From Mustelus asterias (lineage: Eukaryota), in the NCBI RefSeq assembly GCF_964213995.1, contig NC_135812.1, positions 28,272,001 to 28,336,000 on the forward strand: a stretch of 64,000 bases of DNA, written 5' to 3'. The notes beneath the pieces were generated by a model. That model ran no database searches. It was given only the letters and a program-made list of their open reading frames with translations, and was not told the origin of the DNA. Position numbers and translations under genes: made by a program. Each line of letters begins with the position of its first letter. The stretch's first letter is position 1. This document shows, one piece after another, positions 7,820-9,499 of this stretch.

Positions 7820-9499
7820 TGTTATAAAACGAAGGTTCATCCCCCCTCTCAGAACTAACACCGAAACACCCAAAGAGGAGTACCTTGCCTTATAATCTGT
7901 AAAAAGTGTGTATGAAATGGTGTGACCTGCTTCTTGTGGTTAAATACAAAATAAATCTCTTTGACACTCTAAAATCAACCCGTAATGACTTATTTATCTA
8001 ACTAACAGTGAACAAATTAACTGAACTATTAACAAACCAAATAAATCGCTTCGAACTACCAACCATTCCTGAATAAAACTAGATTCTAATGGTATGCCGT
8101 TCCAAAATATACAGTTCCCACTCATATACAAAATAGAATTTAGTCATTCTCTAAATTACAACCAGGTTTTGAGTCTTCTGGAATATTCTGGGCCTTCTCT
8201 GTTGATTCTTCTGTCTAGAACTTCTTTCTTCTTTGGTACCTTTGCTATCTAGATCATGCTTTCTCTAAGACATAGATGAAGCTATGAGAGTCAGCAATTC
8301 CCTCAAGAGAGAGAGAGTTGAGAGCTGTTTTCTCTGGCAGGTGGCAGTTGCTCTCTCTTTTTGTCCCACTGCCCCATTCTTTTACACCTGTGATGACATA
8401 TCAATATTTCCCAGAATAGGATTAGTCCTAGGTTGTCAAAACTATCAGATGTAAATTTAATAGGTTCTTGGTATCTAAGTGCCTAATTCAAATTGATTGG
8501 CTAAATTCAAAAGCCTGTTGCCTTGGCAAAAACTGCTGCTTGGCCTTTCGATACAAATGTTTCAGTTTGGGGCTCCCTATGTACTTGCATTTTTAAAAAC
8601 TCAGCACAGAAAAGCACCACCTTTTAAAGAGACCATGCAAAGATTCCCACGCCCCCTCTCCTAGCATTTTACAATTTTACCATTAAAGAAGACCATTCTC
8701 AGTAACCAGATTGTTGACATTCCTGACAGTGTTGATGTGACTTTGAAAGGCCGCACTGTCATTGTAAAGGGGCCTCGAGGAACATTGCGCAGGGAATTTA
8801 ACCACATTAACCTGGAACTCAGCCTTCTTGGCACCAAGAAAAAGAAGCTTCAAGTTGACAAATGGTGGGGTAACAGAAAAGAGTTGGCCACGGTGCGGAC
8901 AATCTGCAGTCATGTGCAGAACATGATCAAGGGTGTCACCGCAGGTTTCCGTTACAAGATGAGATCAGTGTATGCTCATTTCCCCATTAACGTGGTTGTT
9001 CAGGAACCAGGATCTCTGGTAGAAATCCATAACTTCCTGGGAGAAAAGTATATTCGTAGAGTTCGTATGAAGCCAGGTGTTTCATGTATAGTTTCCCAGG
9101 CCCAGAAAGATGAGCTTGTCCTTGAGGGAAACGACATTGAACTCGTGTCAAACTCTGCTGCCCTGATTCAACAGGCAACAACAGTCAAAAACAAGGATAT
9201 CCGAAAATGTTTGGATGGTATTTACGTCTCTGAGAAGGGTGCAGTTGTTGACACCTCAGCATAGACATAATGGATTAAAGCTGCTCTCATTCAACAAGCA
9301 ACAACAGTGAAAAAGAAGGATATTCGTAAATTCCTGGATGGCATCTATGTGAGCGAAAAGACCACTGTGGTTCCACAGTTCGCTGAATAACTCTGCTCTC
9401 AGATAGAAACCATTAATAAATTCTATGGACTGAAAAAAAAACGCCAAATTTTAACTTCCTACCTCCCAATCTACAATTACTCTACCCAACTTTGCAACA
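7820..9499. mobile_element. Solo LTR-like element (~925 bp net) containing the RPL9 retrocopy
   Basis: TGTT...AACA termini, exact 4-bp TSD CATC (7816-7819, 9500-9503). Removing it restores the frame CLACGRVCIMHIALVSHLRTH* of the flanking LINE. Confidence 0.8.
8686..9441 (+). pseudogene. RPL9: Processed pseudogene of ribosomal protein L9 (uL6)
   Basis: Intronless (x)KTILSNQ...[16 protein letters not shown] at 8686-9264 with no stops or frameshifts, but the start codon position reads AAG and conserved residues are changed (VEIHN, RKCLD). AATAAA at 9415-9420 and A9 tail at 9433-9441. Confidence 0.95.

Follow-up and report, generated by a model that had tools for sequence, protein, structure and literature searches.

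Tandem duplicated exon substitutions are a described class of splicing event in which homologous exons lie in tandem and yield proteins that are alike save for one region; 236 such events are counted in human, 77 of them C-terminal, and in the available portions of the two source texts they are characterized as mostly ancient, often tissue-specific and conservative in the changes made to the protein core (PMC9741552, PMC8373072). The rpl9 gene of the shark Mustelus asterias, which encodes ribosomal protein uL6 and has two homologous last coding exons, here called A and B, resembles this class in its homologous tandem exons, in proteins that differ in a single region, in age and in conservative core changes, but differs from it in that a core ribosomal protein is concerned and in that both exons are present in the major mRNA, being exclusive only as coding sequence. 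The terms 'RPL' and 'ribosomal' do not occur in the main texts of those two sources, as far as these are available (PMC9741552, PMC8373072). Human-centred catalogues would miss the rpl9 swap because it has apparently been lost in tetrapods.

The nearest known architecture is that of KRAS, in which exon 4A is a stop-containing cassette that leaves exon 4B as untranslated sequence. As in rpl9, the last coding exon exists in two homologous versions, used alternatively. Exon 4A goes back to the jawed-vertebrate ancestor and, in the available part of the source, is proposed to have been captured from NRAS, the tails being strongly different and retained in mammals (PMC9882654). In contrast, the rpl9 exons A and B differ by 3–4 residues in the first 30, and one of them is absent from tetrapod records. 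In RPS24 (eS24), as in rpl9, exon choice, there cell-type-specific, shifts the stop codon and the C-terminus (PMC8047918, in part). That change affects about three terminal residues, whereas rpl9 swaps a structured segment of 35–36 residues for a diverged duplicate. The same source, in the portion available, states that splicing had not yet been seen to alter the structure of a ribosomal protein and cites the three-residue RPS24 case (PMC8047918).

The jobs of ribosomes that differ in protein make-up are an open question, and most candidates are paralog pairs, in which any effect is confounded by dosage and promoter. RPL3 and RPL3L constitute one such paralog-based ribosome variant. The zebrafish pairs Rpl5a/b and Rpl22/Rpl22l1 are like the rpl9 forms in providing one organism with two versions of one ribosomal protein (PMC11383705, in part), but the rpl9 forms differ from all such paralogs in coming from one gene and one promoter and in having the same first 157 residues. 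With two selected versions of a structured uL6 segment of 35–36 residues in sharks and bony fish, rpl9 is a candidate counter-example, and its exon choice is cleanly testable in zebrafish. Database isoforms X1 and X2 of fish rpl9 are the same two products, listed without comment, and the available part of a study of plant RPL9 treats paralogs only (PMC8647923). No paper on rpl9 exon duplication, its age or its control was found in the library searched, which is thin in subscription journals. Events of this class are known and databases already contain the isoform sequences; what apparently lacks a description is a core ribosomal protein with an ancient exon swap under selection, kept in fishes and seemingly absent from tetrapods. 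The reading preferred here, to which we assign a probability of about 0.8, is that the duplicated last coding exon of rpl9 serves as a splice switch that probably originated once, before sharks and bony fish parted, and probably disappeared in tetrapods; RBFOX proteins are predicted to control it.

The window, the whole 64,000-nt stretch of M. asterias DNA that was analysed, contains an intronless copy of rpl9 with the following features.

8686..9264, + strand: intronless rpl9 (uL6) reading frame, recognized by Pfam PF00347 and by comparison with the parent gene
8685-8731, 8732-8847, 8848-8943, 8944-9076 and 9077-9157, + strand: parent exons 2 to 6, fused without introns, from an exon-by-exon match to the parent
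9158..9280, + strand: copy of exon A (123 nt; parent L021 2101-1979), with residues 158-192, a stop codon at 9262-9264 and 16 nt of untranslated sequence (9265-9280)
9281..9435, + strand: copy of terminal exon B (parent L021 1214-1062), with residues 158-193 (K169, T185, one residue longer), a stop codon at 9388-9390 and a short untranslated region
9415..9420, + strand: AATAAA polyadenylation signal, read from the sequence and found in the parent exon too
9433..9441, + strand: poly(A) remnant of the retrotransposed mRNA, of which the first 3-4 A are templated by the parent

Positions 8686–9441 are a processed pseudogene of an rpl9 mRNA that included exon A. The coding part differs from that of the parent at 13 of 579 nt, giving six amino-acid changes and five synonymous codons; the disabling change is ATG to AAG, by which the start codon is gone, and is accompanied by five more amino-acid changes, the rest of the frame being open. 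All six junctions in the retrocopy coincide with exon ends of the parent gene. In a search for a target-site duplication, the longest word common to both flanks is 7 nt and does not lie flush with the retrocopy ends. The two C-terminal halves each match their own parent exon (A at 98% and B at 95% identity), and because they map to separate parent exons the likeness of the second copy to the first is far beyond chance. A preliminary description of this DNA had placed copy A at 9157–9264 and copy B at 9280–9390; the translations are as given there, the AATAAA and the A-run are present, and the codon count is correct, with 13 synonymous, 2 non-synonymous and 12 identical codons among the 27 aligned. 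The second copy is real, but exon A extends through G9280, and the first base of exon B is 9281. Similarly, the two amino-acid differences reported between the copies exist in the retrocopy, but one only, N169K, exists in the parent, since Cys175 is a mutation of the window retrocopy. The B tail of the window retrocopy represents an older state, retained in two retrocopies; in the living gene the B-form tail is now TTVIPQFSE.

A DNA search of the shark's own genome, in which the best candidates were scored, yields one intron-containing rpl9 locus (G000:C1:105543060-105550599, minus strand) and nine further rpl9 retrocopies besides the window copy. In this parent locus (L021), exon 6 ends at 4085, exon A occupies 2101–1979 and exon B 1214–1062. 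Exon A, of 123 nt, has an AG acceptor, a stop codon and a GT donor 16 nt past the stop, right after ...GGATTAAAG, and exon B has an AG acceptor, its own stop codon and its own AATAAA; the introns flanking exon A are 1,983 nt upstream and 764 nt downstream. The tandem paralogous last exons that the preliminary description had supposed in the parent, each behind an acceptor AG and with a donor after A, are thus seen directly. Both exons are in phase 1, such that exon 6 with A encodes a protein of 192 residues and exon 6 with B one of 193. The two exons are 84% identical over 70 nt, and their first 27 codons differ by 13 synonymous changes and one non-synonymous change (N169K), corresponding to a pS of 0.76 and a pN of 0.05 (Fisher p 5e-9).

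The possibility that the retrocopy is a chimera made by template switching with a separate paralog, or an artefact of assembly, is favoured by none of the observations and has negligible probability, given that A and B belong to one gene, with B following A after 764 nt, that ten separate retrocopies share the A–B join, and that DNA and protein searches indicate a single intron-containing rpl9 among the best candidates scored; the protein search, made in the own genome with B-type uL6, gave no additional rpl9 locus among those candidates. The source of B, for which a separate paralog had also been considered, is the parent locus itself, which rules out both the template-switch and the separate-paralog readings.

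Inclusion of exon A gives the usual 192-residue uL6 with B as 3' untranslated sequence, and skipping of A gives a 193-residue uL6 with N169K and another tail. In the proposed switch, translation would end within A whenever A is kept, and exon 6 would be joined to B in frame whenever A is skipped. As in tandem duplicated exon substitutions, the exons are homologous, in tandem and in the same phase, with canonical splice sites, transcripts of both kinds, and selection on both. They are not strictly mutually exclusive exons, since the major mRNA contains both and A is a stop-containing cassette exon, but at the protein level the swap acts like a mutually exclusive event.

The same order of elements is found in a teleost cDNA that contaminates a bacterial assembly (L104), whose A and B peptides match catfish records and whose layout, namely A, stop, 10 nt, B, stop, is that of the window. 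The distance from the stop of A to the last exon junction is 16 nt in the shark and 10 nt in L104. A stop codon 10–16 nt ahead of the last exon junction escapes nonsense-mediated decay; inclusion of A is by this rule a productive event and not a poison event, and the A-including and A-skipping mRNAs would both be productive. Since B is in frame with A both in the shark, where 15 nt separate the stop from the first codon of B, and in L104 (9 nt, open), read-through of the stop of A might be thought to yield a protein containing both copies. This is highly improbable, because a second in-frame TAA lies 3 nt after the stop in the shark, because the recorded isoforms swap A for B and never add B, and because a direct joint of exon 6 to B has been observed.

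Splice junctions were checked against L021:800-4450 in contigs from four public runs of 21 listed. The two runs closest to this genome, X15 and X17, contain the exon 6–A joint at depths of 60.5 and 14.8 and the A–B joint at depths of 70 and 24, respectively; the exon 6–B joint is absent from the contigs of X15, X17 and X5. Run X1, which is an RNA run only by guess, contains the exon 6–A and A–B joints at a depth of 10.7 and also the exon 6–B junction that the preliminary description had predicted, in a single contig of 55 nt at a depth of 3.6, with GT..AG ends and zero mismatches to this genome. Because the dominant rpl9 contig of X1 (depth 12,717) differs from this genome at 3 of 45 bases, the low-depth contigs, with the exon 6–B junction, derive from a minor source within that run. 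The tally over runs is therefore three of four for exon 6–A and one of four, at low depth, for exon 6–B, and joints of all three kinds have GT..AG ends. In X5 there is no joint at all and exon A contigs are not listed, and in X1 the main B contig is absent, gaps of a kind that filters can make; exon B in X5 shows 1 difference in 110 nt against about 3–4% in introns, which is too few to count.

All ten retrocopies carry the A–B join, exon 6 is followed by A in every one of the eight that extend far enough to include it, and the exon 6–B joint occurs in 0 of 10, indicating that the mRNA retrotransposed in the germline was mostly of the A form. The A-type protein on record as M. asterias uL6, which has no isoform number, is identical to that of one of these retrocopies (L002, G000:C18:18465363-18466116), and the missing number counts against skipping in this shark. 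L002 is itself a very young retrocopy, with a coding sequence identical to that of the parent throughout; its ATG is intact, a portion of exon 1 is retained, and it sits in an apparent tandem repeat. This copy may be expressed and would confound read mapping. Taken as a whole, skipping of exon A is real, yet in this shark it looks minor or restricted to certain tissues.

Exon B might alternatively be non-coding in this shark lineage, an obligatory 3' untranslated exon whose protein-like appearance is owed to past selection. Such a reading would account for the runs closest to this genome having no exon 6–B joint, for the retrocopies that without exception retain A, and for the two amino-acid changes that the tail of parent B has undergone since the window copy arose, residue 192 of B having drifted from T to A to S across retrocopies. 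It is nevertheless improbable, since residues 158–187, the frame and the position of the stop of B are unchanged in the parent while the untranslated region behind the stop gained indels, since the exon 6–B contig is identical to the sequence of this genome, and since B-type models are present in other sharks. A splice switch between two coding exons remains the preferred reading.

For comparison across vertebrates, 475 proteins were gathered by protein searches and cluster look-ups, of which 337 vertebrate records were hand-labelled from their source names and 138 were excluded as unnamed, non-vertebrate or labelled bacterial; the set includes redundant and pseudogene-derived entries, and one search was biased towards B. 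Among cartilaginous fish, 11 records have K at residue 169 and 12 have N (23 readable of 25). Ray-finned fish have 52 K, 1 R, 101 N and 1 H (155 motifs in 145 readable records of 158), and the 136 tetrapod records that are readable, out of 150, have 134 N, 1 D and 1 S, with K or R in none. A tail longer by one residue accompanies K or R in 59 of 65 fish records of that type, and the short tail is found in 95 of 98 N-type records. In ten fish gene models that contain two motifs, the N-type comes first in all ten and the K-type second in nine. Isoform pairs from eight of eight species, most of them predicted models (XP_), have zero differences before residue 158 and diverge only past S157, as splice forms require. 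Conservation of the frame of B across species, which the preliminary description had made a test of its reading, extends across the jawed fishes.

Databases contain B-type proteins from Callorhinchus, Narcine, Leucoraja, Amblyraja, Rhinoraja, Chiloscyllium, Rhincodon, sturgeons, paddlefish and many teleosts, including zebrafish (NP_001003861); isoform records for Callorhinchus are XP_007887308 and NP_001279675. A-type and B-type chimaera records both have AFK/AFM accessions and are likely the cDNA clones of PMC3466250. An attempt to deduce the tissue of these clones from the order of accessions was dropped as guesswork. Coelacanth and lungfish are not represented among the gathered proteins. 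B-type records without an isoform number occur in two skates, bamboo sharks, sturgeons and paddlefish (P0018, P0025, P0316, P0330, P0331), and the skate record P0018 is also found in Logan contigs. To judge from these protein sequences, such lineages may make mainly or exclusively the B form.

Several gene models (P0004, P0017, P0174, P0313) join rpl9 exons to WDR19 or RFC1, and a whale-shark 'WDR19-like' protein terminates in exon B. These fusions, which reveal the neighbours of rpl9, are probably errors of annotation to which the spare exon gave rise. The exon duplication thus explains a recurrent annotation error, in which many fish models run A and B together or assign B to an adjacent gene.

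Exon B of the shark and of L104 differ by 26 bases in 30 codons, of which 22 are at third positions (p 1e-7), a bias that exists although B is untranslated in the L104 mRNA; for exon A, pN is 0.015 and pS 0.70. The third-position bias of B and the low pN/pS of A bear out the earlier proposal that both copies have been under selection at the protein level, and this comparison of two lineages indicates purifying selection on exon B as protein. For Ser182 the two A exons share the codon TCT and the two B exons share AGY; the B exons also share ACC at residue 185. Among sites informative for the four sequences, 5 group A with A and B with B and 3 and 2 support the other groupings, a result that is weak alone. 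The shared order, length, Ser182 codon class and ACC at residue 185 favour one duplication, which likely took place before the split of sharks and bony fish. This split is more than about 420 million years old.

Two separate duplications, one in cartilaginous and one in ray-finned fishes, followed by convergent changes, would fit the saturation of synonymous sites and the small number of informative sites. They would also require that the order of exons, the N/K split at residue 169, the extra residue and ACC at residue 185 arose alike in both lineages, as did the TCT and AGY serine classes, which are two changes apart, and we give them little credence. A single duplication is accordingly preferred.

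Protein records, together with one mammal-type untranslated region of 57 nt, make it likely that B was lost in tetrapods. This region belongs to L103, a mammal-type cDNA contaminant that is presumably from a rodent; the 57 nt past its stop contain no recognisable B and are too short to prove loss, with best local scores to B of 29–33 as opposed to 109–115 for L104. L103 and L104, from two bacterial assemblies, are the two vertebrate cDNA contaminants among the seven loci obtained in a scan of prokaryote genomes, the other five being prokaryotic L6. In a scan of metagenomes, only L023 of 80 loci is vertebrate-like (89% identity, fish-type sequence). This contig, a chimera of rpl9 and cytochrome b, ends inside the exon and was set aside as uninformative.

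The preliminary description had suggested that B may be the ancestral exon. T185, which B shares with invertebrates and lamprey, is consistent with this, but N169 is shared by A with lamprey: lamprey combines N169, seen in three records, with T185, and K169 is found in one hagfish record (P0273). The pair is thus a mosaic, in which B kept T185 and A kept N169. In invertebrates residue 169 is N, K, R, D or E, in a list biased towards K by the query.

A model of the B-type protein has a mean pLDDT of 84.6 and matches the fold of solved uL6 with a TM of 0.94, which confirms uL6 identity only and is silent on function. According to the model, the swapped exon would comprise the end of helix 151–164, the loop 165–177 and the last beta-strand 178–185, and because it spans these elements B would replace a structural part of domain 2, beyond a loose tail. 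The changes from A to B are at 168–169 (KN to KK or RK), often at 185 (G to T), and in the last residues, the core being nearly fixed. The last residues drift in both exons, and cyprinids, batoids and chimaera have G185 in their B form. The available text of a study of purified zebrafish ribosomes reports that 'alternative isoforms' of Rpl9 are evident, does not specify which, and describes one variant as dominant by more than 10-fold (PMC11383705). Residue 169 and the C-terminal tail are not mentioned in the available portions of three papers on uL6 structure (PMC9932298, PMC10156603, PMC6579518). In the proposed mechanism, B-form uL6 would be incorporated into ribosomes, and the B form may thereby give rise to a different ribosome in some fish tissues.

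The functional gap between the two forms may be small, because residue 169 can be N, K, R, D or E in invertebrates and the tail of B drifts as well. Both exons may therefore be used while their proteins are equivalent, selection maintaining only the splice choice, for an mRNA shorter by 123 nt, for another 3' untranslated region or for a backup if A is missed, with usage free to drift. This explanation, which competes only with the functional part of the main account, is a serious contender that we hold a little short of even odds. It agrees with the range of residues accepted at 169, with the free variation of both tails and the G185 of cyprinid, batoid and chimaera B, with the un-numbered B-type records of skates, bamboo sharks and sturgeons, in which B may be the main form, and with tetrapods apparently managing without B. 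The pairing of N169 with the short tail and of K or R169 with the long one is, however, nearly without exception in jawed fishes, and would be unlikely to last if the proteins were equivalent. Under either view of the proteins, the duplicated exon as a splice switch is retained as the main reading.

With regard to control of the switch, the hexamer TGCATG occurs only three times in 7,950 nt of intron, two of the three being at -53 and -23 from the acceptor of exon A, and none of the remaining six acceptors has it closer than 70 nt. The raw p for its proximity to A is about 1e-4, obtained post hoc among six motifs tried, and TGCATG is not enriched over the rpl9 locus as a whole. Exons with RBFOX2 bound no more than 150 nt ahead of them are typically skipped ones, according to the available part of the source (PMC10676425). 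On the basis of the TGCATG pair upstream of A and this position rule, RBFOX proteins are tentatively predicted to repress exon A through the sites at -53 and -23, causing it to be skipped in some tissues, a prediction with the odds somewhat against it. RBFOX proteins are linked to muscle, heart and neurons. The fullest version of the account is speculative and on balance unlikely as a whole: two kinds of 60S subunit would be made from one rpl9 gene, with RBFOX-rich muscle, heart and neurons loading a B-form uL6 that has a more basic loop at 168–170 and a longer, mostly acidic-ended tail, altering translation; the system would have been kept since the split of sharks and bony fish, skates and sturgeons would use mainly B, and tetrapods would have lost the switch, the non-coding last exon of RPL9 being a decayed B.

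Elsewhere in the window, broken LINE fragments are located at 56635-57889 (minus strand), of which 57209-57889 matches RVT_1, and at 18510-19799, of which 19248-19799 has no Pfam match and is a segment that we take to be LINE-like. An uninterrupted frame of 547 residues at 27100-28743 (minus strand) matches Pfam GWT1 (PF06423, E 3e-132) and is likely the PIGW gene.
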